Program-made: the position numbers and the translations under genes
Origin: Candidatus Latescibacterota bacterium
GTDB lineage: Bacteria; Latescibacterota; UBA2968; GCA-2709665
Direction of reading: 5' to 3'
Assembly (NCBI GenBank): GCA_965116875.1
Contig: OZ220733.1
Span: 5,344,001-5,408,000 of the forward strand
Length of the DNA stretch: 64,000 nucleotides
Notes under the pieces: generated by a model
What the model saw: the letters and a program-made list of their open reading frames with translations, nothing else
What the model was told of the DNA's origin: nothing
Database searches by the model: none
Shown here: one piece after another, positions 41,193 to 60,567 of the stretch
Layout: each line of letters starts with the position of its first letter
Numbering within the stretch: position 1 is the stretch's first letter

Positions 41193-41248
41193 GGGGGAGT
41201 CGATCAGGGCTGTGGTAGGGCGTTGGGACATGTCGCCTGCCGCTCCAT

Positions 41249-42307: not shown

Positions 42308-42391
42308 CTCGATGTATCTGTCAATTGCTGGTTCACGCCTTCGTCGCAACGCAAACAACGCCGTTGACGTTTGTACGCGGATTGAACATGT

Positions 42392-43216: not shown

Positions 43217-43357
43217 CCGTTCCAGGGAAGATCTTGCACCGGGTCTAACGCTCGATGTCCCGAATCGCGATGCAGTCGGATGAGGGTGCGAATGCGAAAA
43301 TCTAATTGAAGCGTGAATGTGTAACCATCGGCAGAATGGCCGATGACGCTCCCGGGG

Positions 43358-44122: not shown

Positions 44123-44209
44123 CCGTATTCGCCCCGTTTTCGTTAGGCCGACATTGGACTCAAGGAAACGTGCAGACAGCTATTGGGGCGGTCGCGCTAC
44201 CCTTTTTAG

Positions 44210-45451
44210 CTATTGAGGAAACACCAGTATTGCATCGCATCGGCGGCGTTCCTTGCGCACGCCACCCCTGTGAATGTCCGAGTAACTGTTCACCACCTCT
44301 CCCCGGACCACCATCGTGCTGGACCCACCTCCGTCCAGATTATAGGCATTGTACGCGCCAAGACCGGCAAGGAGATCCGTGAGCTCCGGAAGGGTCATCC
44401 CCATCGCCAGATTGGGCTGACGACCATCAGCGACGATCAGCCAAAGCGTGCTATTGTCCTTTGACATCCCTATCGCCGTCCTTGGATGTCTCAGGTCATA
44501 AAACCACGGCTCAAAGGACTCGGCGCCGTAATCAGTAAACCGCCGGCCATCTCGAATCAGCAGTGTCCCGGCGCTCGTATAGCTGCAATCTTCCAATGGA
44601 AGCGGGCTACCCGGATTCTCCCGGGAGGTCAGCTGATAGCTGATCTTCGCCTTTGAACCCACCCGGGCGTGCTGCTTCAACCAGTCGGCATACTTGCCGG
44701 ACCCGGAAAGGACGTATCCGTTGGAAGGGATGAGATTGGATCCGACATTGTCGCGGATGGCTGAAACCGCATCCTCCCGCACGATTGCCTCGACACCATT
44801 TCGGTCGGTGAGTGTACTTCGGTTCCACTCCGGTGTATAGAGGATGAGGTCATTCTTGTCGAGTTCTTCTTTTTCGGCCCCTTCTTTATCCCATCCACGG
44901 ACTTCGTTTCGCCTCCGGTTGATTCCGGTCACCTCGCTCTCTTCACTTTCATCCATTGTCACCGTTATACTCAACAGTGGTTCCGCGACGATCATGGTCT
45001 GCCTGTCGTTCCTCGTACAGATTCCAACGCTCCTGCGACCGGGCGATCGCGGTTCGCTCAGGATCTTTCCATCCAGAACAAAGAACTCGCTTGGATCGCC
45101 GTGAAAGATGTTCCATGCATTGTTCGAAAAGGAGTATCCCGCATTCACGGCGACAAGAGCGTTGTATCTCCTTGCCATATCGCTTGTCGCCTCCTGCCCG
45201 ATGATCTGATTCATCGCCATGACCATCTTCAATCGGTACTTCCGCAGGTCTATCTCCGCGACGTGGACGTTCTGGGGAAGCCCGTCGCTGGTCGAGTCCG
45301 CGGAGATATGCGTTCGAACCAATCCGGGTGCGACCTCGGTCACTGTCGCTTCCACATTGGCATTCAAGGGTGGAATCTCGTTCGCGCCGACCGTAAATCC
45401 GCTCAACAATAGTGCTGCCAACAACAGCTGGATGCTCATTCGCTTGTTCAT
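44210..45451 (-). CDS. Phosphodiester glycosidase (NAGPA) family protein, secreted
   Basis: Signal peptide; AVNAGY, HPRTAIG, DGRQ, NLDGGGSSTM. Confidence 0.9.
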   Translation of the reverse strand: MNKRMSIQLLLAALLLSGFTVGANEIPPLNANVEATVTEVAPGLVRTHISADSTSDGLPQNVHVAEIDLRKYRLKMVMAMNQIIGQEATSDMARRYNALVAVNAGYSFSNNAWNIFHGDPSEFFVLDGKILSEPRSPGRRSVGICTRNDRQTMIVAEPLLSITVTMDESEESEVTGINRRRNEVRGWDKEGAEKEELDKNDLILYTPEWNRSTLTDRNGVEAIVREDAVSAIRDNVGSNLIPSNGYVLSGSGKYADWLKQHARVGSKAKISYQLTSRENPGSPLPLEDCSYTSAGTLLIRDGRRFTDYGAESFEPWFYDLRHPRTAIGMSKDNSTLWLIVADGRQPNLAMGMTLPELTDLLAGLGAYNAYNLDGGGSSTMVVRGEVVNSYSDIHRGGVRKERRRCDAILVFPQ

Positions 45452-45518
45452 CTCGATCTCCCAATACGATTCGCCGTGCCTGATGCTGGACACATACGTG
45501 TTATGCGGTGAGTTGACC

Positions 45519-46310
45519 TCAACAGTTTGTGTCCTCCGAATCTGAGATGGATTGCACTCGATACCAATACCGGTATAACGCGCTGAAACCAAACTTGCGT
45601 TGCAGAGCCAGAGCTGGCTCGTTGTTAGCCATCACCTGCAAGTATGCCAGACGCGCTCCCTGCTCAAATCCCCACTTTAGCCGTGCCTCAAGGAGCCGAC
45701 GGCCAAAGCCCTGTCCCCGATGCTCGGGATCTACCAGCAAGTCAAAGAGACCTATGATTGAGCCCGAAACAACTGCGCGGGCGCAACCTACGGATTTACC
45801 ATCAGTCCGGGCGATAACATAGGCCGACGGAGTGGAGATGGCGTTGAGCAGACTGCGAAATACCTCAGAGTGCTGATTGCGATCAGACAGACCTATCCAG
45901 GTTTCGAACCACTCATCAGTTGCACATTCGTATAGCGATACGACAGAGGAGCTATCGGGACTGGCCTCAAGTCGCTTGGTTTGAACCAGCGTTTCGGCGT
46001 CACTGGAGTATTGACGTTGGGCCAATGTCTCGTCCAAATTCCCAGGTTTACAGGTTGGAAAAACCTTGAAAAGACAAGGTAGCGATGCCCGCGCGTACGC
46101 AGCTTCACAATGAACTAGCTTCTCCTGGAGCTGGGTTGTGGATCCGTACAGCGGGACTACACAATTGGCACGGCGACTGTATCCCTCAGACATTCGAACG
46201 ATCCAGCCGTCGTAGAACTCTGTTTGCAGCGCGGGTAGCCCGTTCAACGCGGCCTCTTCCAGCGTTGCTACGAGCTCTGAGTTGTTCGTTGAATCAATAG
46301 CGTTCGTCAT
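45519..46310 (-). CDS. GNAT family N-acetyltransferase
   Basis: GYSRRANCV; VDPEHRGQGFG; AYLQVMANNEPA. Confidence 0.9.
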   Translation of the reverse strand: MTNAIDSTNNSELVATLEEAALNGLPALQTEFYDGWIVRMSEGYSRRANCVVPLYGSTTQLQEKLVHCEAAYARASLPCLFKVFPTCKPGNLDETLAQRQYSSDAETLVQTKRLEASPDSSSVVSLYECATDEWFETWIGLSDRNQHSEVFRSLLNAISTPSAYVIARTDGKSVGCARAVVSGSIIGLFDLLVDPEHRGQGFGRRLLEARLKWGFEQGARLAYLQVMANNEPALALQRKFGFSALYRYWYRVQSISDSEDTNC

Positions 46311-46493
46311 AGGAATAACATCACGCCAGTTTGCAAACCTGCGAATGTGGATTGCCGATGGCCAGGCGCCGACAGGCGCGGAACTCGAATTGCTGCACGG
46401 CAGGACGTGGAATACTCTGCGTCTGATTGAACATATTTGGTTTCATTTGTTCCCAACCATTCGATCGAATGCGTCCCAACAAGGGGTGCGGTT

Positions 46494-47417
46494 TCAGGCA
46501 TTCGTAACCGTTTCAAGATCGCGACACGCCTTCAGCAAAGCCTCCTGGATGTTCAGAAACTCTAGATATCCGGGTGGTAATGGATACCTTGCACTGTCAA
46601 ACGACTGAAGTGGATCGATGATCTTCTGCCTTGCAAAGGTGTAGAGAGCTTTCTGGTGCTCTGTCGCCTCCGGCGCCTGGTGAAAGGAGATACGACAATT
46701 ATTCCGCCACAGTCGAGAATCAACCGTATCGGCCATCGCCTGAATTCGTGAGTCTCGATTTTCAAACTTCGAGCTCAGGTATTTGGACAATCTCTCGGCC
46801 TGCACGTGTGGATTTCGCACGATATCTTCGTACCCGACAAAAAGCCGGTGCGCCGCGTATTCGGTGTGGCACAGGATCAGCGTCATCATGTGCTGCCAGC
46901 GCAGCAGATTCATCGCCACGAACGAAATCCGGGCTTTCAAATTGGACGGCATGATGAACTTCTGCCACGATACGGCTGTGTCCAGCGGGTGGCGAACTGT
47001 GATTATATAAATCGCATCTCCCCATATCTGTTTAAAAAACGGGAGATAATGACAGAGCGCAGGATCCTTCCAGAACCAGGGGCCGCCTGCGTCCATCTCT
47101 GACATCAGGGCAGCGGCTTTTGTTCGATACTCTGGGTCAGAGGCATAATTTCCGATTCGATGTTGAAAGTCACGGTCCCACCAGGTCGCACCGGAAGCAA
47201 AATCCCCTAACTCGGCCAGAAAGTCCCATAACGGCAGGTATTCCCAATAGCCGCGGGGCGCATGCGCATCTGCCGCGTGCAGCTTTTCGGAAGCGCCTGC
47301 ATACGCGCCCCATGTGTGCACCATCTCGGCAACCACAGATGTCCCGCTGCGCTCTGCGCCAAGTACGATAATAGGTTGGCTTTCAGAGGCGGTCATTTCA
47401 AGTGCCCTTGGAGACAT
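46494..47417 (-). CDS. Sulfotransferase family protein
   Basis: VLGAERSGTS, WKDP, VRHPLDTAVS. Confidence 0.88.
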   Translation of the reverse strand: MSPRALEMTASESQPIIVLGAERSGTSVVAEMVHTWGAYAGASEKLHAADAHAPRGYWEYLPLWDFLAELGDFASGATWWDRDFQHRIGNYASDPEYRTKAAALMSEMDAGGPWFWKDPALCHYLPFFKQIWGDAIYIITVRHPLDTAVSWQKFIMPSNLKARISFVAMNLLRWQHMMTLILCHTEYAAHRLFVGYEDIVRNPHVQAERLSKYLSSKFENRDSRIQAMADTVDSRLWRNNCRISFHQAPEATEHQKALYTFARQKIIDPLQSFDSARYPLPPGYLEFLNIQEALLKACRDLETVTNA

Positions 47418-48121
47418 CCACTAATGACGCATTACGTTTGGCCGCACCCGATTCGAGAGGAAGTAACGCGCAGGCGTCCCGACGTTGGAGCCGGGAACGA
47501 GTGCGCCTGCTGAAGTCAAGGACCTCAGGCCGCTGTCAGCAGGATCGGCCGGCCATCGGTAATGACAACGGTATGCTCATAATGAGCCGAGAGAGACCCG
47601 TTCGAGGTTTTCATGGTCCAACCGTCGCTGTCTTCAACGGCCCGGGCCGGATTCTCGGCAATCAATGGCTCGATCGTGATCACAAGACCATTCGTAAGCG
47701 GCGTCAAATCGAGCGGATTATAGGTATTGGCAACGATGGGGTCTTCATGGATGACGCGACCGACTCCATGCCCCGTAAGCTCACTGACAACCCGGAATCC
47801 CTGTCGCGTAACCTCTTGCTCTACGGCACGGCCGATGCAATTGATCGGTTTGCCTGCACGAGCGACGGCCACTGCCTTTTCGAATGCCGTTCGGGCGCAC
47901 CGACACAATCCAACGGCTTTCGGGGAGCAGGGCTGAATCGGAATGGTTACTGCTGCATCCGCAATGTAGCCGTTCAGTTCCGCGGTGACATCCAGGCTTA
48001 CAATGTCACCCTCTTCGAGCACTCGATCACCCGGAATACCGTGAACGATTTCGTCATTGACGCTTATAAGATTGAGTCCACTCCGAAAAGTCGAATTTAC
48101 TTATTGCGGAAAAAGTACTAA

Positions 48122-49822
48122 CCTGATTAATTCATGAATCGTCAGAAGATACAATTTAGGGAAGCAGAAGGAGCTTCCGTGTGATATGAGAAACGACAGT
48201 GCCGCTGCCGTGACTGATTTGGCGTGTCCAAGCCTTTATTGTGGCGTCTGCTGGGAGCACGGTAGCGCCGTTGCGTCAGGTTGACCATCATGTGATGGTC
48301 AAGGGGACAGACGTCTCCATGGCCATTGTTCGTGTCGATCCAAACATGAAGGCGGGGTCAGCACGTCTAGGGATTTATGGAACAACACCCGTTGCCAGAT
48401 TATAGAGGATCTTGCCATAAAGGTGTTTGAGTGGAAACACCGTCGGTAGATGGAACTTGATCCTGGTTTTCAACTCACAAACGCGCGCAGCGACTTTCAA
48501 GAGCCGGTTTTGCAGGGTATTGAACTGTGCGTGGGTCCACTTCGTGCCGCGCAACCCGATCGTCGCCAGGGAATGCATCAGGACATAGGCGGCGCTGTGG
48601 AGAAAGAGACGGAAGTGATTGGCCTGGAAGGTGTGACAAGAGGTGCGATCGGAACAGAGAAAGGTCTTGTGATTCTTGATGAAGTTTTCCATCCTGCCGC
48701 GTGAGCAATAGACGGTTTTGTAGATGCGTGACGGTTGGGCGTGTTGCAGGTTGGTGACCACGAATCGGATATTATCTCCTTGAGGTGTCACTTCCGCCTT
48801 GCAGACGATGCGTTGTGGACAATCCCAGGTCTTCGCCTGATAGTTCCAGCAGCGATAAAGGCGCACGGTTTTTCCCGAAACGGCATACGACGTCTTGGCC
48901 TGGTCCATCAAGGACTGTGCCTTCCGCAGGAGTATGGGGTTGCTGTTCTGTCCGAGGACAAAATACACATCTTCTTCCTCACACAACGCGTGCACTTCCG
49001 GACACGAAAAATGCGCATCGCCACGTAACAGGATCGCCACGTCGGGCCAGGCTTTACGCAGGTAGGCGATCACCCGTTTAAGGATGGTGACGATCTCTTT
49101 TCCCGTGGGCCGCCTGCCAGGGCGCAAGACCGTCGTGATCAACTTGCCGGTCCGGCCTTCATAGATATGCAGGGGCTGGTAGCAATACCCCTTGAAATAC
49201 GCATTGAACAACGACAACTGTTGAGACCCATACACCTTGTCTTCGGTGTCATCGATATCCAACAGGATGGCTTCAGGCGGTTCCTCATACGAGGCGATAA
49301 ACACGTCCGCAAAGGCCCTGGCGATCCGAAACAAATCGGTTCTGCTGATCCGGTTCTCGAACCGACTCATCGTGGGTTGACTGGCCAGCGCCGCACCGGA
49401 AAGCGGCAACCGATCACAGGCCGCCTTGAAACCGGGGTCCTCGCGTAACGTATTGCAATCGTTCGCATCCTCATAGCCGCAGGCCATCTGAAAGACACGT
49501 TGCTTGACCAGATCCACCGTGGCGTGATCCACGTAACTTTGATGCCGACGATCCGTGATGGCCTCAACGATCCCATACAAAATGCCGATTTTGGCCTCCA
49601 CCTCACGAAGCAGCATCACCCCGCTGTCGCTGGTCAGGATGCCTCCATCGAACGTGGCTTCTACCTGTTTGCCAGAAAGACTTGCGAAAGACATCCTGTG
49701 ATGCTTATCTTGACCTTCCACGGTAGTTTCCTCCTGTGTCATTGTGTGATGGTTATGACCGTAACCATATTATAATACAATGACTTGGGTATGGAAACTA
49801 CCTTTTTTATGAATTATTCGGG
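48122..49822 (-). mobile_element. IS1380-family insertion sequence (nested)
   Basis: IRs CCTGATTAATTCAT / CCCGAATAATTCAT (12/14); 4-bp TSD CTAA at 48118-48121 and 49823-49826. Confidence 0.92.
48375..49742 (-). CDS. IS1380 family DDE transposase
   Basis: FDGGILTSDSG, GYEDANDC, LASQPTMSRFEN, LDIDDT, RGDAHF, RGRMENFIK; likely start GTG 49721. Confidence 0.93.
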   Translation of the reverse strand: MTQEETTVEGQDKHHRMSFASLSGKQVEATFDGGILTSDSGVMLLREVEAKIGILYGIVEAITDRRHQSYVDHATVDLVKQRVFQMACGYEDANDCNTLREDPGFKAACDRLPLSGAALASQPTMSRFENRISRTDLFRIARAFADVFIASYEEPPEAILLDIDDTEDKVYGSQQLSLFNAYFKGYCYQPLHIYEGRTGKLITTVLRPGRRPTGKEIVTILKRVIAYLRKAWPDVAILLRGDAHFSCPEVHALCEEEDVYFVLGQNSNPILLRKAQSLMDQAKTSYAVSGKTVRLYRCWNYQAKTWDCPQRIVCKAEVTPQGDNIRFVVTNLQHAQPSRIYKTVYCSRGRMENFIKNHKTFLCSDRTSCHTFQANHFRLFLHSAAYVLMHSLATIGLRGTKWTHAQFNTLQNRLLKVAARVCELKTRIKFHLPTVFPLKHLYGKILYNLATGVVP

Positions 49823-49883
49823 CTAAATTCCAAGTGTGAACAGGATGCAGAAGGATAATGGTAGAGAACGGGGGACAGGACAG

Positions 49884-51410
49884 ATGTTTAAGAGAAGCGC
49901 GTCGCGCAGTCAACCGGATTTGTTTTCGAATTTCGAGTCACACTTCACGGATCGGAAACAGGCGCAGTTGAATGATGCGAAGTCGTGGCATAATCAGTTT
50001 TACGAGCACCTCACGTCAAAGATAGACGAGGATGTGTTTTCGGTGTTGTTTGATGCCGACATCGGCCGTCCCAATGCGCCCATCCGTCAGTTGTTTGCCA
50101 TGATGATCATGAAGGAGGGCTTTGGGTGGAGCGATGCGCAACTGTTCGAGCAATGTCGGTTCAACATACTGGCGATGCGGGCATTGGGATTGATGAATCT
50201 GTCTGATGAGGCGCCTGTGGAGTCGACGTATTACCTGTTCAAGCAGGCCTTGTATGCATATCAACTGAACACCGGTCAAGACCTGGTTGGCGAGGTCTTT
50301 AGCAGCTTAACCAAGACGCAGGCCAATGCCTTCGGTGTGTTGGGTCAGCAAATCCGAATGGACAGTAAGTTGATCGGCTCGAACATTGCGTTGTGTTGTC
50401 GGTTGCAGTTGGTGGTGAGTTGCTTACACCGGTTCTGGGGATCGTTGGACGAGGACCTGAAGCGAAGATTATCGGCAAGAGATCGGCAGGTTCTGGACGC
50501 AATGCTCACGGTGAAACCCCATCAGGTTGTCTACCGACTCACCCGTGCTGAAAAAGGGGAGAAGCTACAGGAATACGGTGTGTTATTGAGCAGGCTTCAA
50601 GCGACCTATACCGAGCAAGACAGCGATCACTATGGTGTGATGGTGCGTGTTTTTGGAGACCAATATACAGTTATCTCGTCTTCTAAACAGGTGCTTCCCA
50701 AGCCGCCTGACGAGATCTCCGCATCCTCGTTGCAGTCCCCCGATGACGAAGATGCGGCTTTTCGCAGGAAAGGAGAGGATCAGGTAAAAGGATATAGTGT
50801 CAACCTCACCGAGACCTGTGGTGGGGAGGGCCTCAACTTGATCACGGACATTGAGGTGAAATCCGCGACGGCACCCGACAACGGGTTTGTGCAGACGGCC
50901 ATACAGCGCACACAGCAGGTGGTCGGACAGGTTCGAGAAGTATCGATGGATGGGGCCTATCATGATCCATCCAACGCCGAGTATGCAGAACAACAGAACA
51001 AGCAATTCTATTACAGTGGCTTGCAAGGAACCCCGGGACGTTTCATCTATGAACGCACAGATGACGGCGTCACCGTCACGGATCGAAAAACCGGAGTGGT
51101 GCACATCGCCCAGGAATACAAACCGGGAAAATACAAACTCATCATCGATGGCAAACCCCGATACTTTAAAGAACAGCACATCGACAATTACCTCAAACGC
51201 AAACAGATTGAGGCCCTGCCTGAACACATCAGAAACCGACGCAATAACGTCGAAGCCAGTATCTTCCAGTTAAGCTATTACACCCGAAACGGTAAAACCC
51301 GCTATCGCGGATTGATGCCACATCAATGGTGGGCGCGCTGTCGCACCTTATGGGTCAATCTGGTTCGGATCCGGAATTACGTCGCAACACCCACGATGCT
51401 TCCCGCATAA
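49884..51410 (+). CDS. DDE transposase with DUF772-like N-terminus
   Basis: GRPNAP...WSDAQL, RMDSKLI, MDGAYH, RNNVEAS, KTRYRG. Confidence 0.85.
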   Translation: MFKRSASRSQPDLFSNFESHFTDRKQAQLNDAKSWHNQFYEHLTSKIDEDVFSVLFDADIGRPNAPIRQLFAMMIMKEGFGWSDAQLFEQCRFNILAMRALGLMNLSDEAPVESTYYLFKQALYAYQLNTGQDLVGEVFSSLTKTQANAFGVLGQQIRMDSKLIGSNIALCCRLQLVVSCLHRFWGSLDEDLKRRLSARDRQVLDAMLTVKPHQVVYRLTRAEKGEKLQEYGVLLSRLQATYTEQDSDHYGVMVRVFGDQYTVISSSKQVLPKPPDEISASSLQSPDDEDAAFRRKGEDQVKGYSVNLTETCGGEGLNLITDIEVKSATAPDNGFVQTAIQRTQQVVGQVREVSMDGAYHDPSNAEYAEQQNKQFYYSGLQGTPGRFIYERTDDGVTVTDRKTGVVHIAQEYKPGKYKLIIDGKPRYFKEQHIDNYLKRKQIEALPEHIRNRRNNVEASIFQLSYYTRNGKTRYRGLMPHQWWARCRTLWVNLVRIRNYVATPTMLPA

Positions 51411-52020
51411 GTGGAGATTTATTGCGAAAAACCGCCATACCATCGCCCTGAGCAACGTTGCACCTTGCCCCTGCTGCGTTAGGCCGCACCTACGCGCCTT
51501 ATCTCCGACACACGCTCCTTCTCAAGTTCCAACGTTGACCGCTCTAACGATGTCCCCATTACACCCGTTTTCGGAGGGGACTCAAGATTGACGCGGGGAA
51601 AACCGTAAAACAGGCGGGGCGCGGGGGTTGCGCCGTACCAGTCGAGCACCGACTCGCCGGCGCGATCGACGTCCGCTGTGGTTACTCCGGCGCGGACGGA
51701 ACCCGCCATTTCCCTCAATGTGGCGGCAACCACCCGCCCGGCCTTCGCAAGGCCTTCGAAATCTTCAGGACATTCTATCGACAACGTCATGCTCCCATTG
51801 GAAAGGATGACTCTCAATAATGACCAGCTTGAAGCAATAATAGGGTTTACGGGACAGTGCTCGGGTTGCCTGTGACGTTCCCGCTGTTTGCGAACCGCCG
51901 TAGCGATGCGCAGGAAGGTCCTCGCAGGCCAAGAGTGCTTTCGACAATCTCAGGACTGGCTACGCGCCGATTCCCAAGTACAAATGTCATTCGACCGTGG
52001 GAATCTCACGCCGGGAATGT

Positions 52021-52851
52021 TCAGGGCTGTCGACCATCGACGTCTGCAAATCCGTACTCTAGGGCCAAATCGAGGACCTCCAGATATGGAGTTACTCCGA
52101 CTTTGCCCATCACCTCCGGGTCGCCAGCCAACGCCGCGATCGCCCGGCCGGCGTATACTGGCGTAAACGTCTTCTCCAGATCTTCAGGTCTGGTGCTCTC
52201 GTCAGGCACCCAGGTTCGCATGTATTGGTGTTCGTCGCCAAGCGACAACAGGATAACTGCGATCCCGTTTTCGCGGCATTCCTCTGCCATTCCATGCGAC
52301 ATTCGATATATCGCGGACTTGAACGTGTCATAGAACAGATTCGGGTGGAACTTGCTGTCCGGATTGATCCCGCTCGTAGTATTGACGATCAGACCGTGTC
52401 CCTGCTCCAGCATGATCGAAATCGCGCCCCGAGCAGCCGTCATATGGGATCTCAAACCGGCTCCGTACATGAGTTCCCACTGCCGAATTGGGAGTTCCCA
52501 GAACCGTTTTCGCCCCCAAAATCCATCGGCCATCTCGTAGCCGCCCCAGGCATTACTCACGAGCACATCCAGCCGTCCTTGCTCTTTCTTGATTCGCCTG
52601 AAGAGTTCCTCAACCTGCTCATCTTTCGTGTGATCTATCCGGACAGGAATCCCCTCGCCGCCACCTTGAGTCACCGTTTCAGCCGTGTCTTCAATGGTTT
52701 CGCCGGGGACGTCCGTGGTCTGGTTCCCGCGGATGCTGCGTCCCGTCACATATACAGTCGCGCCGGCTTCACCGAGCGCAGTGGCAATGCCCTTCCCCCC
52801 GCCGCGACTTGCTCCCGTCACCACGGCTACTCTGTTTGGCAAAGTCTTCAT
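52021..52851 (-). CDS. Short-chain dehydrogenase/reductase (DHRS1-like)
   Basis: VTGASRGGGKGIA, LDVLVSNAW, YDTFK. Confidence 0.9.
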   Translation of the reverse strand: MKTLPNRVAVVTGASRGGGKGIATALGEAGATVYVTGRSIRGNQTTDVPGETIEDTAETVTQGGGEGIPVRIDHTKDEQVEELFRRIKKEQGRLDVLVSNAWGGYEMADGFWGRKRFWELPIRQWELMYGAGLRSHMTAARGAISIMLEQGHGLIVNTTSGINPDSKFHPNLFYDTFKSAIYRMSHGMAEECRENGIAVILLSLGDEHQYMRTWVPDESTRPEDLEKTFTPVYAGRAIAALAGDPEVMGKVGVTPYLEVLDLALEYGFADVDGRQP

Positions 52852-53114
52852 ATCCCGGATTTCCTGTCCTCCAACATCTCACATAGGCATCGCTTAAACG
52901 TCCATGCCAACCGCCGGCCCGCCGGAGCGTTGCGAATGTGCGCTTCAGCCAGGACGAAGAGAGCCCTGCGAAAGGCATAGGGTATGACGTTTTCAGTGCC
53001 CGCGATCCCGCGTAGCGGTCGCGCCTCAAGACCAGGCATCTGTGGCATGGATGGTACTCGTGTAAAGAGCCGTGTTGTTTTTCCAGGCGATAGATGGGAG
53101 AAGCGATCGTTGTC

Positions 53115-53924
53115 TTATTTTTTTTGTTTCGCAAAGAAGGCGCGTACACTCAATAGCTGATTCGCATAAAACTCAGCATCCTGGTTCTCGCGTGATTCCA
53201 GGGCCGATACTGAGGCGCTGAACTCCGATTCGCCAACGTCTTTCTCGCCGTTCAGGATCCTTGTCAGCCCGATATAGCCCTCCAACATCTCTATTTCCTC
53301 AGGTTTGGAGCCATGTGCCTTGCTGTGATCCCGCGCCTTCGCAAAGACCGAAAGAGCTTCGCCATAGGACTCCATTGCAATGAGGTGTGCGCCAAGAAAC
53401 CAGTACGTAAACGCCAACTGAACGGCACTTGGATCAAGCTCGTGCAATTGCCGAACGCTATAACGGGCCATTGCAAGACCCTGTCGCATCTGGTCTGGCG
53501 AAATCGCAATCCCGGGCTCCTCCCAGCCGATCCAGGTACAGGATGCTGCGTCGGTCGCCATCCTCTTGGCAGCAAAACGAAGCTTTTTTGCCGCAACGTC
53601 ATCCTTTCCATCATGCGTGGCTGCTCGACCCAGGCAGTAGTGGATGCCGGCATTTGCAAAGTGAAGCACCTGCTCCGTGGATTTGGCCTTCCAGTAACAG
53701 TCCAGAACAAGGTTGCCGTAAGCCCCAACAATCTCTGACTCGTCTTCAAGTCCAAGTACAAATTCGCTTGCAGCAAACAGGTCCTTTTCCCTTGAAAGAG
53801 ATTGGACGGCTTTGAAAATGTCTTCACGTGTCATACCTGCTCCCTTGCTGCCGACTTCGCCAACGACTGGCAACGCAAGGCCGAGTACGAATACACCGGG
53901 GAGTATCCAGTCTATCTGAGCCAT
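53115..53924 (-). CDS. Hypothetical alpha-helical (TPR-like) protein, possible signal peptide
   Basis: Clean ORF, AGGAGG RBS, hydrophobic N-terminus. Confidence 0.7.
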   Translation of the reverse strand: MAQIDWILPGVFVLGLALPVVGEVGSKGAGMTREDIFKAVQSLSREKDLFAASEFVLGLEDESEIVGAYGNLVLDCYWKAKSTEQVLHFANAGIHYCLGRAATHDGKDDVAAKKLRFAAKRMATDAASCTWIGWEEPGIAISPDQMRQGLAMARYSVRQLHELDPSAVQLAFTYWFLGAHLIAMESYGEALSVFAKARDHSKAHGSKPEEIEMLEGYIGLTRILNGEKDVGESEFSASVSALESRENQDAEFYANQLLSVRAFFAKQKK

Positions 53925-53999
53925 CCCAATTGGTCCTCCTGTGCTGAGGATAATTTGCCGGCGGCACCCGCAGTTTGCAATGGAATGGCCGCGGCAGAC

Positions 54000-55208
54000 T
54001 CACGCACGCAGGAGCTCTAGGCATTCCTCATAGGCTTCGAATCGCTCGCCTTCGCGTTCCTCGGGATCCACCTTCTTGAGGAACAGTGCGCTGCCGGGTT
54101 TCTTTCCGGTAAACTCGCGGTGGCTCCTGATGTGCGCCGGGTTCTCACCGCTCCACTTGACCTCGCCATCCTGCAGATAGACGAAGTTTCCTCCGTGTTC
54201 CTCGATCATCGCCTGCATCCGATCGCGATAGAACAGTCCCTGCTCGCAAGCCGTCTCCCTCACCGTGGCCATGATTTCGGGCGGATCTTCCTCGACAGAG
54301 TCGAACTCGTTCAGTGGACCCTCGACCTCGCTCTCGAAGTCGATTTCGTCGAGATTGACCGTACCGAAACCACTCTGCGCGGCAACGAGGAGATGGTTGC
54401 GGTCGCGACGGAATGGCGGCGTGGGCCAATCGGACGCGGGATCGTGCCCCATCAGGCTCGTGCCCACGGCATCGGTGGCGATGATCTGGTCGCCCGCGAT
54501 GAGGGCGTTGCACACGCGTCCCTCGCCGTCCCACTCACGACCCCATTGACCGGTCGTGGCATCTACGATATTGAGACAAGGGTTGGTAATACGCGCCAGA
54601 TCGGGCAGCACGTAGGACAGCCGGATTGCGTGGTGGAAATAGCTGCGCACCCGACCCTCCGGCGGAATCGTGGGCGTGAGGCCGAACAGATTCTTGGTGC
54701 AAAGCGTGACACCCATGAAGAGGTGGTTCTTCAACTTGGCGACGGAAACGACCTCATCCGCTTCGCTGAAGCACCGGCTGAGCGTGTAGCGCTGGAACAT
54801 GAAGCCGCCGCCCGGTACGTCATATTCTGCGAAGGGGGGATAATTCGATTCCGCGTGATCGACGTCGAATTCCTCGAGCAGCGGAAGATAGTTGAAATAG
54901 CCCGTCGCGGCCCCGGATGCGTCCCGGCAGAACGTATCGGCGGCGACAAGCGTCGCTGAGGTCCGTTCCCGCAATAGCCGAAGGACGGCGCGGAAGACAG
55001 CATCGTCGACGAGTTCTCGACGGCGGCCCTCGAAACGAGCCACATTCGTATGCCCCATGTTGAATTTGAGCGCGATGCGGCCCGCCTTTTCCAGCTTCTC
55101 CCAGGTGCGCACGAGGGGGGCGGTCGCCCGTACCAGGTTCTCGTAGACCTCCTCGTCGGAGGCCCGGTGATCGCAACGGACTGCACGTACGCTGAATTCA
55201 CGGTCCAT
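54000..55208 (-). CDS. DUF362 domain protein
   Basis: IALKFN, SVAKLKNH..GVTLCTKNLFG, NIVDA, ATDAVG. Confidence 0.85.
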   Translation of the reverse strand: MDREFSVRAVRCDHRASDEEVYENLVRATAPLVRTWEKLEKAGRIALKFNMGHTNVARFEGRRRELVDDAVFRAVLRLLRERTSATLVAADTFCRDASGAATGYFNYLPLLEEFDVDHAESNYPPFAEYDVPGGGFMFQRYTLSRCFSEADEVVSVAKLKNHLFMGVTLCTKNLFGLTPTIPPEGRVRSYFHHAIRLSYVLPDLARITNPCLNIVDATTGQWGREWDGEGRVCNALIAGDQIIATDAVGTSLMGHDPASDWPTPPFRRDRNHLLVAAQSGFGTVNLDEIDFESEVEGPLNEFDSVEEDPPEIMATVRETACEQGLFYRDRMQAMIEEHGGNFVYLQDGEVKWSGENPAHIRSHREFTGKKPGSALFLKKVDPEEREGERFEAYEECLELLRA

Positions 55209-55299
55209 CTCTTAACTCTCCTTGTGTGATTCCGGCCTGATGCAGGAAATGGAAGAAGCCGCAGCCCGTCAGACCAGGCAGTCTTTTGGGGGCTGCCGT

Positions 55300-56259
55300 C
55301 TATTCGAGAAGCTTCAGCACAGTTGTCCGGTCCCAGCCTCCGGGCGTTGGCCCCTGGTACGCTGCGAGGATGTCCAGCACTCTTGCCAGGGAATGTAGTT
55401 TCAGGACCCGTTCTTTTTCGGCACTCAACATTCCATAGGTCCGCCAGAAGCATTCGGCCAGTTCCGGCGTATTGAGGAATACGCTCAGATAAAGATCCCT
55501 GGAGTCGGTGAATGCCGGTGCAAATGCGACATTTCCGAAGTCAAGCACCGCCGCCAGATTCAGGGTCGCGGGGTCTACGCGAAGATTCTGAAACTGAAAG
55601 TCATGATGTACAATTGCGTCTACTTCCGTCTCTCCCATCGAATCGACGAGGTCGGTCCAAAGCGCATCGCAGCGATCGAGGGTGTCTTTCCCAAGCCAGC
55701 CTTGCTTCCGGAGTAGCCCGACTGCCCGCTGGAATCTGTTCTCCTCGGACTTCCACCACTCGCTCCCGCTCATCGGGTCGCCGAGAATCGCCGCGACATC
55801 CGGCCCAATGGGAACTGAGTGGAGGTCTCTGAGGTAAGACGCGCATTGCGCAAGGATCTTCTCCCTGTCATCGAAGCCAATCTCGCTCCAAAACCGGTCG
55901 CCATCGACGCCGTCCGCATATTCGATCAGTGCATGGGGATACGCAACATTCGAGTCGCCGGACGAGGCGTAGATCCAGTTTGGCGTTGGCAACGCAGATT
56001 TGCGCTGGACGATTTTGACTACACCCTCTTCCCTTCGCATCACCTCGTCATCCGCGCATCTGACCCAGACCTTCAATACAAGTAAATCACCACGGGTCGA
56101 CTCCAACAGGAAAATCGCGTTCACCTCGCCGCGTTTCAACCTTCGTATCGCAGTCGGTTGCGGAAATCCGGCCTTTGAACAAATGGCCTGCGCGATCGGA
56201 AGCGAAATATCGTATTCGACGAATTCCCGGTACGTTAACAATGGTTTTGGCGCGGTCAT
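55300..56259 (-). CDS. APH-family phosphotransferase
   Basis: GEVN, VLKV, VHHDFQFQNL, AVLDFG. Confidence 0.85.
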   Translation of the reverse strand: MTAPKPLLTYREFVEYDISLPIAQAICSKAGFPQPTAIRRLKRGEVNAIFLLESTRGDLLVLKVWVRCADDEVMRREEGVVKIVQRKSALPTPNWIYASSGDSNVAYPHALIEYADGVDGDRFWSEIGFDDREKILAQCASYLRDLHSVPIGPDVAAILGDPMSGSEWWKSEENRFQRAVGLLRKQGWLGKDTLDRCDALWTDLVDSMGETEVDAIVHHDFQFQNLRVDPATLNLAAVLDFGNVAFAPAFTDSRDLYLSVFLNTPELAECFWRTYGMLSAEKERVLKLHSLARVLDILAAYQGPTPGGWDRTTVLKLLE

Positions 56260-56346
56260 AAACAAACACAAGATGAGAACCATCGGCCTGCAGTTGCCGC
56301 ATAAAGGCCGTGGCACCTCCAAACTCGCGGAATGGAATTGAGCCCT

Positions 56347-57102
56347 CTAAATCCCATTCGGTTCTCGTTCCGATTCTTGATCCACGCGTCCGGACTCGGC
56401 AATTCTAAGCAGATGGCTTGCAAGAATAACCATCTCAGCCGCTTCCTCAGCGCCTAAAGCAACATTGCGATGGCTATGCGGATTCTTGTATAAGCCAATG
56501 GCTCCGGCAAACAAGCTTGAAAGGGCTTCACGCTCTGCGGTTTGTAGGTTTACATCGCGTAGTGGTCCAGACTGGTGGTGGAACGCTTTGCGCATCAGTT
56601 TTGTCCCAACATCATTCTCTGAATACTCACCGCGCTTGCGGACAGCGATCTCAACCTCTTTGAAGGCATTGAAGACGGCTGTGTCGTAGACGCCTCGACT
56701 GAAGGAAGGCATCGAAGCCTGCGCAATATTCGGATGTAACATCCTTCTTGGAAGTAAGTCATTACGTCGGTACGCCGTATAATCCGCGTGACTCTTGAAG
56801 CTCTTACCGCGGCGTGTAACGAAGAACCAGCCTTCCTCACTGCCGGGTTTAGGCGCCAACAGTCCCTCTCGTTCCAGCCAGACCCATCCTTCCATCAGGA
56901 CCTTCTTGATTTCATCTTCATTGCATTCCGGAGAGTATTCCCCGATCCAATCCGCAAGGCTGAAGTTGTAGCGACTCAACGCTTCCGTTTCTCTAGGATC
57001 CAGCGAGTTCAGATGTTCGAGGATAACGCCGCCAACTTCCTCAGGTTCCAGCGATAGCAGGAGTTCTGGATCTGGAACAATATCGGGAATAGACTTGCTC
57101 AT
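56347..57102 (-). CDS. TIGR02391 family protein
   Basis: LHPNI..YDTAVFNAFKEVEIAVR..GTKLMRKAF..LFAGAIGLYKNPHSH. Confidence 0.88.
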   Translation of the reverse strand: MSKSIPDIVPDPELLLSLEPEEVGGVILEHLNSLDPRETEALSRYNFSLADWIGEYSPECNEDEIKKVLMEGWVWLEREGLLAPKPGSEEGWFFVTRRGKSFKSHADYTAYRRNDLLPRRMLHPNIAQASMPSFSRGVYDTAVFNAFKEVEIAVRKRGEYSENDVGTKLMRKAFHHQSGPLRDVNLQTAEREALSSLFAGAIGLYKNPHSHRNVALGAEEAAEMVILASHLLRIAESGRVDQESEREPNGI

Positions 57103-57166
57103 AGATGTGTACTCCCAGTAGGTAGAGTGGCAGCTGGAGTTCGACGATTTACGGTCGATCGGTAAT

Positions 57167-57871
57167 TCATGTGACATCAAGTTCGTAGAGTTTATAGATG
57201 GGTTCAATGTGATGCCACTGTAAAACGTTGATTAGCCAGAACCGCAAATCCCGTGTTGGAGCAGGCTCCGTCAGACGAAAGTTGGCCTGTTGCAAGAGTA
57301 AATCCTTATCTTCATCACCGTTGATTATTACATCAACCATGTGCTTAAGATTTGAACTGGGATCAGTACCATGCTCGGATCGCAAGGACCTGATAGCAAT
57401 ATTGCTTGCCTCGATCAGGATCGGTGAAGGACATGCTTCCATAATGCCAAAAACCTTAGGATATCGGCGGTATAGTTCATCCGCCACTCCAGGAACTTCT
57501 CGGCGGTACAATTCTTCAAGGAAGTCAATCGTGTATGTCAACAATTCTGAGCCGAATCTTTTGCCTATGGCATACCGTATAGCTGTTGATTTTGCGGGCG
57601 ACATGTAGGTATCTCCATGCTGCCAGTTCCAACTACCAGTTTCCTGGTTCGCCATTTTTGCGAAGGATCCACTTCTTACTGTATATAGGTGTGAGTCTCG
57701 TAAGTGTGTTTCACATAACGCCAAAACTTCGCGCGCGAGGCACAATAGGTTCCAATCTTTGACGGGATTCGTCCCTGCCAATCCATATTGCGAAATCCCA
57801 TCTACAAAAACCGTGGAAGTACCATGATACAGCGGAACCAGCAGGCGGCCGTTATATGTTAAATCCTTCAT
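57167..57871 (-). CDS. Hypothetical protein with N-terminal LYHGT motif
   Basis: AAGGAG RBS; LYHGTST...GISQYGL...YMSP...AIRYA; visibly lower GC. Confidence 0.7.
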   Translation of the reverse strand: MKDLTYNGRLLVPLYHGTSTVFVDGISQYGLAGTNPVKDWNLLCLAREVLALCETHLRDSHLYTVRSGSFAKMANQETGSWNWQHGDTYMSPAKSTAIRYAIGKRFGSELLTYTIDFLEELYRREVPGVADELYRRYPKVFGIMEACPSPILIEASNIAIRSLRSEHGTDPSSNLKHMVDVIINGDEDKDLLLQQANFRLTEPAPTRDLRFWLINVLQWHHIEPIYKLYELDVT

Positions 57872-57996
57872 ATTGAAGGTCTCCTTTGTCACAATTGGAC
57901 CTCGCCCGGCTGACGATTGGCGTCTGTGACGGCTTCAGGTCCAGCTTGGCCGCGGTTGCGGCGAAATGCGAACCATGCTGGTACGGGACGAATGCT

Positions 57997-58437
57997 TTAC
58001 TTGCGTCGGTCCATCGACTCTCTCAGCCGGTCAATCTTGTCGTCGTATCCGGCAACGAGCCGAGGAAGCGCTCTGACATCGGCCCACAAGAAATCGAACG
58101 GATGGATGAGAGATCCGTCCTCGGCGTGTTCTCCATGACGCCAGGATTCCCTTGTTGGCCCTTCGACAGACAGATGAAAGAACCAGCGATGCTGGAGTTC
58201 ATCGCTCCCGCAGTCCCGCATGTCCCGTGTATCCCGGCCCAGGAATCGTATAAATCTGAGCTCCGATAGTCCCGTCTCCTCTTCTGCTTCCCGCATCACC
58301 GCATCCCGAGGCTTCTCCCCCGGCTCAATCGTCCCCGCGGGAACCTGAATGCCGGCTTCCGGCGCTCCGGGCTGCGTAAAGAGCAGCAGCCGGCGCCCAC
58401 TTGTGATATAGGCGTAGGCTCTGTGGCGTGTTGTCAT
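57997..58437 (-). CDS. NUDIX hydrolase
   Basis: PAGTIEPGEKPRDAVMREAEEETGL. Confidence 0.9.
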   Translation of the reverse strand: MTTRHRAYAYITSGRRLLLFTQPGAPEAGIQVPAGTIEPGEKPRDAVMREAEEETGLSELRFIRFLGRDTRDMRDCGSDELQHRWFFHLSVEGPTRESWRHGEHAEDGSLIHPFDFLWADVRALPRLVAGYDDKIDRLRESMDRRK

Positions 58438-58582
58438 CCGGGTAGGAATTGGTGAGACCCCTGTCTCACAAGCCGTGCAAATTACTCGGCACCCCCGAAG
58501 CCGGAGGTGCCGTATTTGCCGAAATGGAGGTCAATTGGATCCTGGTAGACTTCGAGTGGCATCATCTACGCCTTGTTGGTCT

Positions 58583-58897
58583 TCATTCATTTCCTGCCGG
58601 TGCTTCCGACCAACGGCCGGCCATTTTCCGCAATTCTTGCTCATGAACAGGCCATTCGTGAAGTGTGGCGGGATCGAAGTCGGCGCCATTCGGCCAGACG
58701 AGCGTATGGACCTCAGCGTCAATACGCACCTGATTGAAGAGCACTTCATCTACCAGCGGTCCGAACAACTCACCCGCAAGTACAGGTCGAAAGTCGATAA
58801 CCTGGGTCGTTTCATCGTTGAAACTGACTTTGATCCGATGGGAACCAACAATCTCGAACGAAACGACTCGATGTATTGGATGACTCACGCTATCCAT
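58583..58897 (-). CDS. DUF2442 domain protein
   Basis: IKVSFND..IDF..L.GELFGPL..FNQVRID..TLVWPNGADFDPATL. Confidence 0.85.
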   Translation of the reverse strand: MDSVSHPIHRVVSFEIVGSHRIKVSFNDETTQVIDFRPVLAGELFGPLVDEVLFNQVRIDAEVHTLVWPNGADFDPATLHEWPVHEQELRKMAGRWSEAPAGNE

Positions 58898-58957
58898 ATT
58901 TGTTGTGTACCGAACCTGAAGATTTGCAGTGAAGCAATTGTACCGATCGGCTTCCCG

Positions 58958-59106
58958 GGAGCGAGGGCATCCTGCCCTAGACGGCTGATTCGCGCGGCTC
59001 TGGCGCCATCATTTTCAATATGAATTCGGATGCGAGGGAAACGATAGGCCCCTAATTCGGGTTTTGATGGGGTACAGGAAGTTCGAGGGCAGGATGCCCT
59101 CGCTCC
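58958..59106. repeat. REP doublet (REPIN-like, family E)
   Basis: Perfect 21-bp inverted repeat GGAGCGAGGGCATCCTGCCCT (58958-58978 / 59086-59106); each arm is itself palindromic. Confidence 0.85.
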
Positions 59107-59400
59107 GGATGTTCGTGGATCATGCTGTGACAGTGGGCAGATCGCCTTCGGTCGCAGGCCGCTCATGTCCGGTTCGAAATCCCGCGGGAAATGTAACGAA
59201 TTCTACCTCGGTAAGCAAAATCCGAATCGGGACCGGCGGGGGTCCATTGCTGCCCCTCGGAACTTCACGCGCGAATAACTACTCTGATCCTCCACGTCCA
59301 TAAACGTCTACAGGTCTGCAAGCCTGGAACGTCGGTTGCCAAAAACGGAAAACGCGTTCGTGTCAACTCATTCTGTTTGTAAACGATAGGACGTCGACAT

Positions 59401-59760
59401 CCCTCCACCGCATCAGCCGTCGCCGGCCCGTTCGACCCTTCGACAATCCTTCAACATTTCGACGAGCTCAAAGCAAGCGGGCTTGCTTCGACAGGCTCAC
59501 TTCGGCAAGCTCAGTGCAGGAAGCACAAGCAGGACAGCGGCTCCGGGTCCGCAGGTTCAGGGCAGGTTATCGGTCTCCTGACAGCGGCTTAATGACGTCC
59601 AATGAACCAAATAACGCGTGGTCATTGAGCATGCCTGCATTGAGCTTGTCGAAATGTCGAAATGCCCGCTATGTAACAGCCATTCGACGGAACTCTGGGC
59701 GGCGCCTTCGACCCTTCGCCGGGCCCTTCGACAAGCTCAGGGACCGGCTCGGCTTCTGCC
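59401..59760. repeat. Composite repeat with a six-unit nest of 23-nt hairpin units (family A)
   Basis: 59428-59566 parses into six units; second nest at 59623-59664; single hairpin near 59725-59743; ends match 7225-7440 and 40310-40590. Confidence 0.9.
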
Positions 59761-59922
59761 TGCCTCGCATGCTTCAGCAGACAGGCGACTCCCCTATGGT
59801 GAGTGATTGGACCGTTCATCCGATGGGCTTTTGATTCAAGCCGAATGCTGAGAGCTGACGGCAGATCGCTGTTTTTCCTGATTCCGGTCGGCCCAGCTTT
59901 GGGAATCGATCTACCTGACGTA

Positions 59923-60567
59923 CTACGGCCATTTGTAGTGCCGTATCTTCGGATCGCGGTACCTCGCCCGCGTATCCCACCACATTGCGATGCCGATGCC
60001 GCCTTCGTCGTACCTGGCATCGGTCACCTGGTTGACGAGCCTTCCGTCGATATAGGTGGTCAACGAACGGTGTCGCGCCGAGATGATGACGTGGTACTCT
60101 CGGCCCTTCTCCAGAGCGTAGTTGACGACACTGAGCTTGGTGACGCCGTGGATGCCCGGCTCGCGCAACGTGACGTTCATGGTTTGCCAGGCATAATCGA
60201 ATTCAACGAAGTAGAAGCCCTTTCTGTCGTCGGTGACGCGGAAGGGGAACTGCATGCACGAGCCCTTTTCCAGCGTCACGAAAAGCGAAACCTCGTAGTT
60301 CCTCCAGCCGGAATCACCCTGAAAAATATGGGACTTGCGTTTGCCGTCCAGCTGACCGAGAATGGCGTCTCCATCGCGAGACCACCCTCCGGAGGACGCG
60401 GTCGCCAGCCAGCCTTCCAGGCCCTTGCCCTGAAGAAGCGATCGCCAGGGGATGATCAGCCCGTCAGGACGGCTCCGGCCATAGTCGGAGTCGACGCCGC
60501 CGGAACCCGCGTTGACCGTCGATACCGCGAAACGAAGCGTGAGCAAGCAAACCAGGGGGAATTTCAT
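59923..60567 (-). CDS. DUF1080 (3-keto-disaccharide hydrolase-like) domain protein, secreted
   Basis: WRSLLQGKGLEGW...W.NY...TYIDGRLV...GGIGI. Confidence 0.7.
   Translation of the reverse strand: MKFPLVCLLTLRFAVSTVNAGSGGVDSDYGRSRPDGLIIPWRSLLQGKGLEGWLATASSGGWSRDGDAILGQLDGKRKSHIFQGDSGWRNYEVSLFVTLEKGSCMQFPFRVTDDRKGFYFVEFDYAWQTMNVTLREPGIHGVTKLSVVNYALEKGREYHVIISARHRSLTTYIDGRLVNQVTDARYDEGGIGIAMWWDTRARYRDPKIRHYKWP

Follow-up and report, generated by a model that had tools for sequence, protein, structure and literature searches.

A 23-nucleotide repeat unit nested within copies of itself in a Candidatus Latescibacterota genome

The DNA analyzed here is a window of 64,000 nucleotides (nt), bases 5,344,001-5,408,000 of the single-contig genome of an uncultured marine Candidatus Latescibacterota bacterium (OZ220733.1; 5,453,092 base pairs, bp; 59.6% G+C; completeness 97.7%; hereafter G000), and its subject is a repeat unit of 23 nt that occurs, at positions 59428-59566 of the window and at many other places, inserted within copies of itself. 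The unit is a discrete block, present or absent to the base both between paralogs of the same genome and between orthologous loci of sister species. We read it as a micro-element without genes, 23 nt long or, in some subfamilies, 24 nt, that is mobile, targets its own sequence and inserts into the loop of its host, and whose nests have in addition been multiplied passively within larger composite repeats. We give this reading a probability of roughly 0.7. The unit would be one of the smallest mobile DNA elements seen.

Sequence and pairing of the unit

We read the unit on its TCGA strand, with position 1 at the first stem base; the preliminary description, which was made from the letters of the window and drew attention to the locus, used the GAGC strand. 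In our orientation the unit is N4-TCGA-CAR-GCTC-N4' followed by a 4-nt 3' tail, 23 nt in all, and on the opposite strand the tail becomes a 4-nt 5' foot ahead of a GAGC-YTG-TCGA hairpin. The tails vary (ACCG, AGCG, CAGG, CAAG, ACCA, GACG), as do the feet (for example CGGT, CGCT, CCTG, CTTG and TGGT), and GACG is the only tail that reads CGTC on the other strand. Subfamilies of 24 nt, with a 5-nt tail, are found in the sister genomes G002, G006 and G009.

The motif is strongly over-represented. There are 15 copies of GAGCNNGTCGA in the window, against 1.1 expected and a maximum of 4 in 100 shuffles, and the 13-mer TTCGACAAGCTCA has 72 copies genome-wide against 1 for its reversed control. The genome holds 687 exact TCGA-N3-GCTC cores, 125 of them with four complementary flanking pairs. 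Among the 158 cores with a CAR loop, a perfect 4-bp stem is found in 119, whereas 2000 shuffles of the 3' arms gave a mean of 34.6 and a maximum of 49. These stems fall into eight types, CCCT (61), CATT (25), TGCT (13), CACT (8), TCCT (5), CGCT (4), CGTT (2) and GATT (1), and the pairing of the stem is real as covariation. The 14 stems with a single mismatch include 9 A.C against 2 G.T, a small wobble asymmetry that leans weakly to the GAGC strand.

A nest of six units at 59428-59566

We built a scoring model that combines a position weight matrix for the loop with the pairing of the stem, trained it on 119 clean genomic units, and used it for greedy excision with no coordinates supplied beforehand. 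The 99.99th percentile of 200,000 random genomic 23-mers scores 7.4. The preliminary description had parsed the 139 nt at 59428-59566 into six interleaved units, and the four inner ones were recovered at exactly the same coordinates, with scores of 13.2-22.8. All six lie on the plus strand. Unit 1 (59455-59477; stem CATT/AAAG, tail CAAG, score 19.0) is an intact 23-mer placed after position 8 of unit 4, and unit 2 (59498-59520; stem CACT/AGTG, tail CAGG, score 21.9) is another, placed after position 14 of unit 3. Unit 3, of the TGCT type, is split around unit 2 (59484-97 + 59521-29, spanning 59484-59529; restored score 22.8). Unit 4, of the TCCT type, lies in three pieces around two inserts (59447-54 + 59478-83 + 59530-38, spanning 59447-59538; restored score 13.2).

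The two outer units of that parse are also present, but they are degenerate and were missed by the strict 23-nt rule. Unit 5 (CCCT type; 59436-46 + 59539-51, spanning 59436-59551) has 24 nt and reaches a score of 25.6 only when one loop G is taken out; its junction, CAA^...^GGCTC, recurs in an extra 24-nt insert of the sister genome G004. Unit 6, the outermost layer (59428-35 + 59552-66, spanning 59428-59566; score 18.7), has GTTC in place of GCTC and three of the four stem pairs. Under the strict 23-nt rule the real sequence contains 4 units, compared with none in 292 and one in 8 of 300 dinucleotide shuffles of the 139 nt. The nest ties for the deepest genome-wide under strict rules, and relaxed rules add two more degenerate layers to it.

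Fixed length of the inserts

A genome-wide excision, which the preliminary description had put forward as a check, shows that insert lengths peak sharply at 23 nt. We took 683 hairpins that satisfy a loose definition (a noisy set, since the same definition gives 277 in the reversed genome), removed L nt around each and counted the new host hairpins that formed across the junction. For L = 19-26 the counts are 1, 3, 3, 10, 65, 13, 8 and 6, that is, 65 at 23 nt against 10 at 22 nt and 13 at 24 nt, with a secondary bump at L = 31 (23 + 8). All but one of the 65 cases at L = 23 (64/65) fit a hairpin plus a 4-nt 3' tail. The same length emerges from paralogs: a gapped all-against-all alignment of 118 repeat-bearing regions gave 17 entries for indels of 23 nt, corresponding to 16 distinct sites (one of them entered twice, a base apart), every one of them a unit, and among indels of at least 4 nt no other length exceeds 6 entries.

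The genus as a whole behaves alike. We searched 15 genomes, G000 and 14 sister species whose flanking genes are ~81-87% identical in DNA, for the pattern TCGA, N4, TCGACARGCTC, 6-16 nt, GCTC, with the reversed sequence as control. The pattern is present in 15/15 genomes, with 5-25 matches each, and the control gave 0. Of 207 matches, 150 were listed, and their spacing corresponds to a 23-nt unit in 116, to a 24-nt unit in 16 and to a spacing of 8 or 9 in 18; spacings of 6, 7, 10 and 13-16 are absent among the matches listed.

These lengths bear on the idea that the dolls arose from replication slippage or from tandem duplication of half-units. Arrays of left halves do exist, with a period of 8 at 16005-16024, 3496-3512 and 59647-59664 and of 14 at 59486-59513, and a 14-nt left-half array is found in a Dehalococcoidia contig. 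To build a nest, however, slippage would have to produce duplications in matched pairs (8+15, 10+13, 11+12 or 14+9 nt), with a sum of 23 every time; inner and outer units usually differ in stem, each is self-complementary, and the nested order is correct. The sharp 23-nt peaks of the excision, paralog and genus tests do not fit slippage either, and we regard this explanation as largely refuted and scarcely credible. As a separate matter, we rejected the identification of the locus as a tandem or slippage repeat, since its order is left-left-right-right rather than left-right-left-right and Tandem Repeats Finder detects only short half-unit arrays.

Where and how the units insert

At a score of at least 12, the genome contains 286 units of 23 nt, which cover ~0.12% of it. 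The outermost units comprise 149 that are solo, 47 with one level of insertion and 13 with two levels. The proposal of a self-targeting discrete block has thus held up, with 77 of the 286 units (27%) inside another unit, a fixed length and exact empty and filled states.

Breakpoints fall within the 11-nt loop of the host in 64 of 64 nests: after position 8 (TCGA^) in 29, 10 in 10, 11 in 10 and 14 (GCT^C) in 15. None of the 64 breaks lies in the stem, although the test could have detected such cases. The preliminary description had named two recurrent breakpoints, G^AGC and G^TCGA, which are our positions 14 and 8; both stand, and positions 10 and 11 occur too. Insert lengths are not random, and breakpoints are confined to these four positions.

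The position of the break is set by the subfamily of the insert. Inserts of the TGCT, CGCT and CACT types enter at position 14 in 15/15 cases, across CCCT, TCCT, CATT and TGCT hosts, and CATT-type inserts enter at position 8 in 12/12, across six host stems. The left flank is accordingly fixed within these subfamilies (TCGA for CATT, 12/12; GCT for the TGCT type, 15/15), while CCCT inserts use three positions, 8, 10 or 11. Orientation is constrained as well: at L = 23, 65 host hairpins share the direction of their insert, and the 3 that oppose it amount to background.

No target duplication was found at any of the 64 junction pairs, which bears out the preliminary description on this point at all junctions examined. 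Small hairpins unrelated to the unit, and unit-like sites within larger repeats, harbor some of the outermost units. One non-unit target site holds a CCCT unit at three places, and an apparently empty copy of it lies upstream of a GIY-YIG gene.

Other ideas about the junctions were dropped. Inspection by eye for target duplication, for a tail equal to the flank or for guide pairing gave nothing consistent across subfamilies. An identity as a miniature inverted-repeat transposable element was also rejected, because the ends are asymmetric, with a tail at just one of them, and the 64 junction pairs show no duplication.

Other nests of the window

Six further inserts had been reported in the window, and all of them (6/6) were recovered at exactly the same coordinates, with scores of 27.4-30.0. 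Removing the insert restores the host to a 23-mer in five of the six (host scores 18.0-30.3); the remaining host, at 3441, is shorter, as had been stated. Closest to the main nest is a two-level nest on the minus strand (59619-59664; scores 24.3 for the host and 29.4 for the insert), with a CATT host of tail ACCA (59619-33 + 59657-64) and a CATT insert of tail CAGG (59634-59656). It is followed on the plus strand by a solo CCCT unit with tail ACCG (59724-59746; score 30.9), which occupies a unit-like site of a larger composite. All nests of this locus are enclosed in that composite repeat, which spans 59400-59775 on the plus strand and has arms CCACCGCATCAGCCGTCGCCGG ... GGCTCGGCTTCTGC; seven other places of the genome have single units between the same arms.

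The remaining nests are spread over the window. At 16008-16053 (plus strand; scores 30.3 and 30.0, host first here and below), a CCCT host with tail AGCG (16008-15 + 16039-53) holds a CCCT insert with tail ACCG (16016-16038). At 15930-15975 (minus strand; 24.3 and 29.4), a CACT host with tail ACCA holds a CATT insert with tail CAGG (15945-15967). At 7258-7303 (plus strand; 30.3 and 27.6), a CATT host with tail ACCA holds, at position 14, a CGCT insert with tail CACG (7272-7294), and this insert shows up as a paralog indel of exactly 23 nt. At 40401-40446 (plus strand; 18.0 and 27.4), a CATT host with tail ACCA holds, at position 8, a CATC insert with tail CAGG (40409-40431). Finally, an inner CACT unit with tail CAAG (3441-3463; plus strand, score 29.9) lies in a shortened TGCC host that was not restored as a 23-mer.

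Around the main nest, the stretch 59170-59920 contains only overlapping spurious open reading frames (ORFs) and no convincing gene. The neighboring interval 58953-59174 is a separate repeat of ~220 nt, with dozens of copies here and in every sister species searched, and it yields a spurious ORF of 93 amino acids. Outside the window, G000:C1:1774107-1791987 contains a pair of ORFs for IS110-type transposases and also four to five FtsX-type permease genes (~790 amino acids) in tandem, each of these genes being followed by unit nests.

Empty and filled sites in related genomes

The preliminary description had suggested looking in relatives for polymorphisms of plus or minus 23 nt, and exact 23-nt gaps were found between sister species as well as between paralogs. 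The genome G004 aligns throughout the locus of the main nest, and three segments of exactly 23 nt are missing from it: 59455-59477, approximately 59498-59520, and 59634-59656. At the second of these sites its host is an intact 23-mer, and at the third it has a single unit. G004 also has an extra 24-nt unit of the TCCT type inside the counterpart of the solo unit 59724-59746; this extra unit does not occur in the window. In G003 and G014, the entire 59400-59775 composite is missing at the orthologous site.

A second locus gives a stepwise series. The region 15844-16186 corresponds to 50 nt in G003 and G014, to a composite with single units in G002, and to the same with two further 23-nt inserts in G000. 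G002 has an exact 23-nt gap at 16016-16038 and a single unit in the place of the 15930-15975 nest. Ortholog comparisons yield in total four exact 23-nt gaps and one 24-nt gap. The stepwise series suggests gain of units rather than precise loss.

Within the assembled contigs of 4 out of 10 sequencing runs, which drop rare variants, no 23-nt indel was found over 40200-60100 of the window. The runs include sponge and coral metagenomes. These contigs have only 1-nt differences, at 59430, 59496 and 59503, in addition to contig joints that probably come from paralogous repeat copies. At 40332-40568, contigs from three runs join across and leave out 204-234 nt; either there are strains without the composite repeat, or paralogous copies were aligned there.

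Distribution across genomes and phyla

All 15 genomes of the genus carry 39-154 copies of the motif. Other genera of the family have 0-17, and another family mostly 0-2, with the exception of G024 (40) and G038 (17). The 13-mer core differs sharply within genera: G059 has 346 copies, the highest number, and G058 has 1, G079 has 41 and G078 has 5, and G024 has 40 against 0-2 in the 15 congeners searched. Such jumps between congeners look like bursts or invasions.

In a set of 168 species-level genomes of the phylum, the nest signature is present in 21, and the reversed control gave 0 in all. Beyond the 15 genomes of the genus, the carriers are G015 (8), G024 (3), G079 (10), G059 (72), G048 (1) and G116 (1). 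In G015, one 23-nt unit with tail TTCA builds a doll four levels deep, in which every break follows TCGACA. In G079, units lie inside a periodically repeated, coding-looking stretch, and one copy has a nested insert of 24 nt that would be in frame.

The core also extends well beyond this phylum. The 15-mer CTTCGACARGCTCAG was found in contigs labelled Chloroflexia, Dehalococcoidia, Microbacterium, Sphingomonas, Burkholderiales, Gallionellaceae, Chitinophagaceae and others. Since ~2,200 single matches are expected by chance in the 596 Gb searched, single matches are uninformative. Many of these contigs, though, contain the 15-mer in inverted pairs 25-110 nt apart or in tandem arrays and are clearly repeats. 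Tandem arrays of the core have a period of 54 nt in a Microbacterium contig, 24 nt in a Synechococcaceae contig and 14 nt in a Dehalococcoidia contig (the left-half array mentioned above), and in Proteobacteria the core occurs in inverted pairs flanked by CCGTTCG / CGAACGG.

Candidate enzymes

We compared the distribution of the repeat with those of Y1_Tnp (PF01797), Y2_Tnp (PF04986), RVT_1 (PF00078), GIY-YIG (PF01541, in G000 only) and DUF559 (PF04480), and with those of two protein queries, a RAYT-like protein and a small GIY-YIG protein. The preliminary description had supposed that the foot and hairpin are mobilized by an HUH enzyme acting on single strands, a RAYT or an IS200/IS605 TnpA, whose gene lies outside the window. 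HUH enzymes such as those of IS608 and the RAYTs give this kind of product, precise, free of duplication and oriented by strand. The insertions described here have these properties, with ends set by a hairpin and breaks specific to the subfamily (after TCGA for CATT, after GCT for TGCT), and the genome does contain a RAYT-like gene.

The gene content does not support this driver, however. The sole PF01797 match of G000 is the RAYT-like gene itself, at genome position 2,123,471. Its NF047646 score is 33 bits, below the family cut-off of 80, and it has an in-frame TGA at an expected tryptophan codon, just ahead of the ..SYDH.. motif. Within the interval G000:C1:2122820-2125002, the gene is flanked by direct and inverted copies of a different, conventional REP, GCGGACATTCCTGTCTGC, with a 7-bp stem; of its 56 copies genome-wide, 9 lie around the RAYT-like gene and 4 are within 100 nt of a unit. 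The RAYT-like query has homologues in 7/14 sister species and none in G002, G003, G006, G008, G010, G012 and G014, among which G008, G012 and G014 are assemblies of 1-2 contigs with 142-148 motif copies; G016 and G019, with 3 motif copies apiece, do have homologues. Weak matches to PF01797 occur in 7/14 sister species, and the repeat with its nests in all 14; this family has 0 matches in G059 (346 copies) but is present in its congener G058 (1 copy). Y2_Tnp is nearly absent, with 0 matches in G000 and one weak match among the 14 sister species. The orientation of the units relative to the replichores (43/43 and 20/26, with origin and terminus placed by GC skew only) shows no bias. We therefore consider an HUH driver improbable.

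Spread through RNA is another candidate: the transcribed unit would fold as RNA and be copied back into DNA by a reverse transcriptase. Such RNA-mediated spread has reportedly been proposed for the small dispersed repeats (SDRs) of cyanobacteria. The stem mismatches, leaning to wobble on one strand (9 vs 2), are in its favor, and so is the location of the units, which are intergenic, adjoin genes and may be transcribed. Against it, RVT_1 has 0 matches in the single-contig genome that carries the window, has matches in 8/14 sister species, and has 0 in the carriers G015, G024, G038 and G079. Complete assemblies rich in the repeat and without a reverse transcriptase include G000, G008, G014, G015 and G024, and we find this route very improbable.

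The nucleases fared no better. The small GIY-YIG protein was found in 8/14 sister species. DUF559 has one copy in G000; neither this gene nor those of G079 have units at their flanks, and G059 and G024 gave no match. The suggestion that a nuclease or transposase gene flanked by the unit might reveal the enzyme thus led to a RAYT-like gene ringed by another REP and to an unflanked DUF559 gene. As an observation on its own, two small GIY-YIG genes of G000 (G000:C1:3535236-3535700 and 4399043-4399800) have repeat-rich upstream regions.

Interpretation

Several observations weigh against a mobile, self-targeting element. None of the families tested, Y1_Tnp, RAYT-like, Y2_Tnp, RVT_1, small GIY-YIG and DUF559, tracks the repeat. 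Folding is weak, with single-unit hairpins at -3.4 to -0.8 kcal/mol (z ~0) and the 139-nt nest no better than its shuffles (z -0.37 and -1.30), so that the pairing is read from covariation alone. The wobble asymmetry comes from few cases, in copies that are non-independent. Each event between species may be a gain or a precise loss, and because the sister species are only ~81-87% identical in DNA, nothing shows present-day activity. Finally, when the 64 nests are grouped by insert stem, host stem and breakpoint, 23 classes result; the two largest contain 15 and 8 nests, or 11 and 7 if the tail of the insert is taken into account as well. Nests ride in larger multi-copy composites of 150-350 nt, including REPIN-like inverted doublets, and these composites are themselves present or absent between species. 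Given so few classes and this mode of travel, many nest copies must be inherited or recombined rather than independent, and the insertion events needed are of the order of 10-20, not 64.

One could go further and propose that the unit has no current mobility, a few ancient insertions having been spread as nests by transposition and gene conversion of the composites; recombination among paralogs would then account for the empty and filled states. The recurrence of the same composite nests, with 11 and 7 copies in the two commonest classes, the presence and absence of composites between species, and the paralogs that the nest of the window has elsewhere in the genome are all consistent with this. 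Yet there are 23 combinations of insert, host and breakpoint, with TGCT-type inserts at one position in three host types and CATT-type inserts at one position in six; paralogs of the host of 59455-77 do not have this insert; the junctions have no matching direct repeats, and slippage cannot add or remove exactly one unit there; and the first nests would still require an insertion mechanism. We hold this alternative to be unlikely. The view of the doll as a long hairpin driven by thermodynamics was dropped, as neither the units nor the 139-nt nest beat their shuffles.

Returning to the mobile, self-targeting unit, we can sketch how it might move. Our tentative mechanism, to which we give somewhat less than even odds, is a structure-guided enzyme that acts in trans on one strand. 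Such an enzyme would recognize the 11-nt loop, which is conserved and closed by the covarying stem of 4 bp, on a strand that may be the GAGC strand, weakly favored by the wobble asymmetry. It would cut or copy the unit with ends at the stem base and 4 nt past it, and would then join the unit into a loop left exposed by a copy already in place or by some other small hairpin. With each insertion the loop of the host would be wrecked and a new apical loop brought in, so that dolls could grow stepwise, and many nests would then be multiplied passively inside the composites of 150-350 nt. The chemistry resembles that of HUH enzymes, yet no known family co-occurs with the repeat.

A broader proposal, which we find rather doubtful, is that the TCGA-CAR-GCTC unit is a trace of a widespread movement of DNA, in many phyla, by an enzyme that belongs to neither the known HUH nor the known reverse-transcriptase families, or by a housekeeping enzyme of single-stranded DNA. 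Widespread insertion of stem-loops of ~23 nt into exposed hairpin loops would explain the occurrence of the core in Chloroflexota, Actinomycetota, Alpha- and Betaproteobacteria and Bacteroidota, as well as the jumps in copy number between congeners.

How the smallest bacterial repeats spread (SDRs, CGTC-type REPs and others without a transposase of their own) is a long-standing question, and this family offers a clean handle on it: a fixed length, insertion into loops only, in the same orientation, without duplication and specific to the subfamily, empty and filled orthologs, and contrasts between congeners. These contrasts in copy number (346 vs 1, 41 vs 5, 40 vs 0-2) could reveal the responsible enzyme by comparison of proteomes. 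In more practical terms, the units lengthen intergenic regions and make spurious ORFs, and they will confuse the assembly and annotation of symbiont genomes.

Comparison with known systems

Rfam gave nothing at gathering scores across the whole window, with only a chance-level match (E 0.17) at 59300-59900. A full-text search for core 13-mers, covering main texts of the accessible literature, found no description of the core motif, and a search for the peptide words encoded by the repeat gave nothing relevant.

The unit shares several traits with REP, BIME and REPIN sequences and with GTAG and CGTC REPs, as far as these are covered by the accessible part of Di Nocera et al. 2013 (PMC3733652): it is an intergenic stem-loop with an unpaired 4-nt tag, forms inverted doublets and sometimes lies inside small palindromes. 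That part of the paper gives stems of 6-9 bp and loops of mostly 2-5 nt for tagged REPs, unlike the 4-bp stem, conserved 11-mer loop and variable tag of the 23-nt unit; it contains no description of self-nesting at a fixed length, and reports that the CGTC-tagged class has no dedicated transposase (PMC3733652). In contrast to the pairing of REPINs with RAYTs, the unit is not found around the RAYT-like gene of its genome, which goes with another REP.

Single-strand transposition by TnpA of the IS608 type produces no target duplication, is strand-specific and has ends set by small hairpins. The 23-nt unit resembles the IS200/IS605 elements in being inserted without target duplication, in an orientation, and with ends placed relative to a small hairpin. 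It differs from them in that half of its carriers lack a Y1 transposase, no tetranucleotide is fixed across subfamilies, there is no replication-strand bias, and the element is a single 23-nt hairpin rather than two distinct ends.

Outside bacteria, the GC clusters of yeast mitochondria offer another parallel, at least in the accessible text of Wu and Hao 2015 (PMC4478555). The GC42 cluster described there has 42 nt, is GC-rich in an AT-rich genome and has a putative target-site duplication. Like the unit, these clusters are gene-less, palindromic, tiny and sporadic, they form compounds, and the mechanism of their amplification is unknown (PMC4478555). Unlike them, the unit lives in a bacterial host, has 23 nt and makes no duplication.

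The most similar repeats are those of Nostocaceae. The families SDR1-8 are said to have been described by Elhai and colleagues in 2008 as repeats of 21-27 nt with a small shared fold, compensatory changes and precise insertion at defined sites, and two of the families reportedly nest within themselves. On this account, the likeness is close: a gene-less dispersed repeat of 21-27 nt, a fold that covaries, precise insertion, self-nesting and no enzyme identified. The same account runs against the remark in the preliminary description that it knew of no report of self-nesting at a fixed length. The unit of Latescibacterota differs in its non-cyanobacterial host and in the presence of the core in many phyla, and probably in its sequence, the TCGA-CAR-GCTC core. 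According to PMC4390886, the insertion point of SDR5 in HIP1 falls between the third base and the fourth, and PMC5861425 reports that SDR-like repeats were not found beyond the Nostocaceae. We found no photosystem reaction-centre (Photo_RC) gene in the 97.7%-complete single-contig genome, so that its bearer is not a cyanobacterium and the present case would lie outside Nostocaceae. As weak evidence in addition, the Atlas neighbors of one protein of the window are mostly Acidobacteriota. The Nostocaceae SDRs are the closest known case, and the 23-nt unit is a very small mobile repeat in a non-cyanobacterial lineage.

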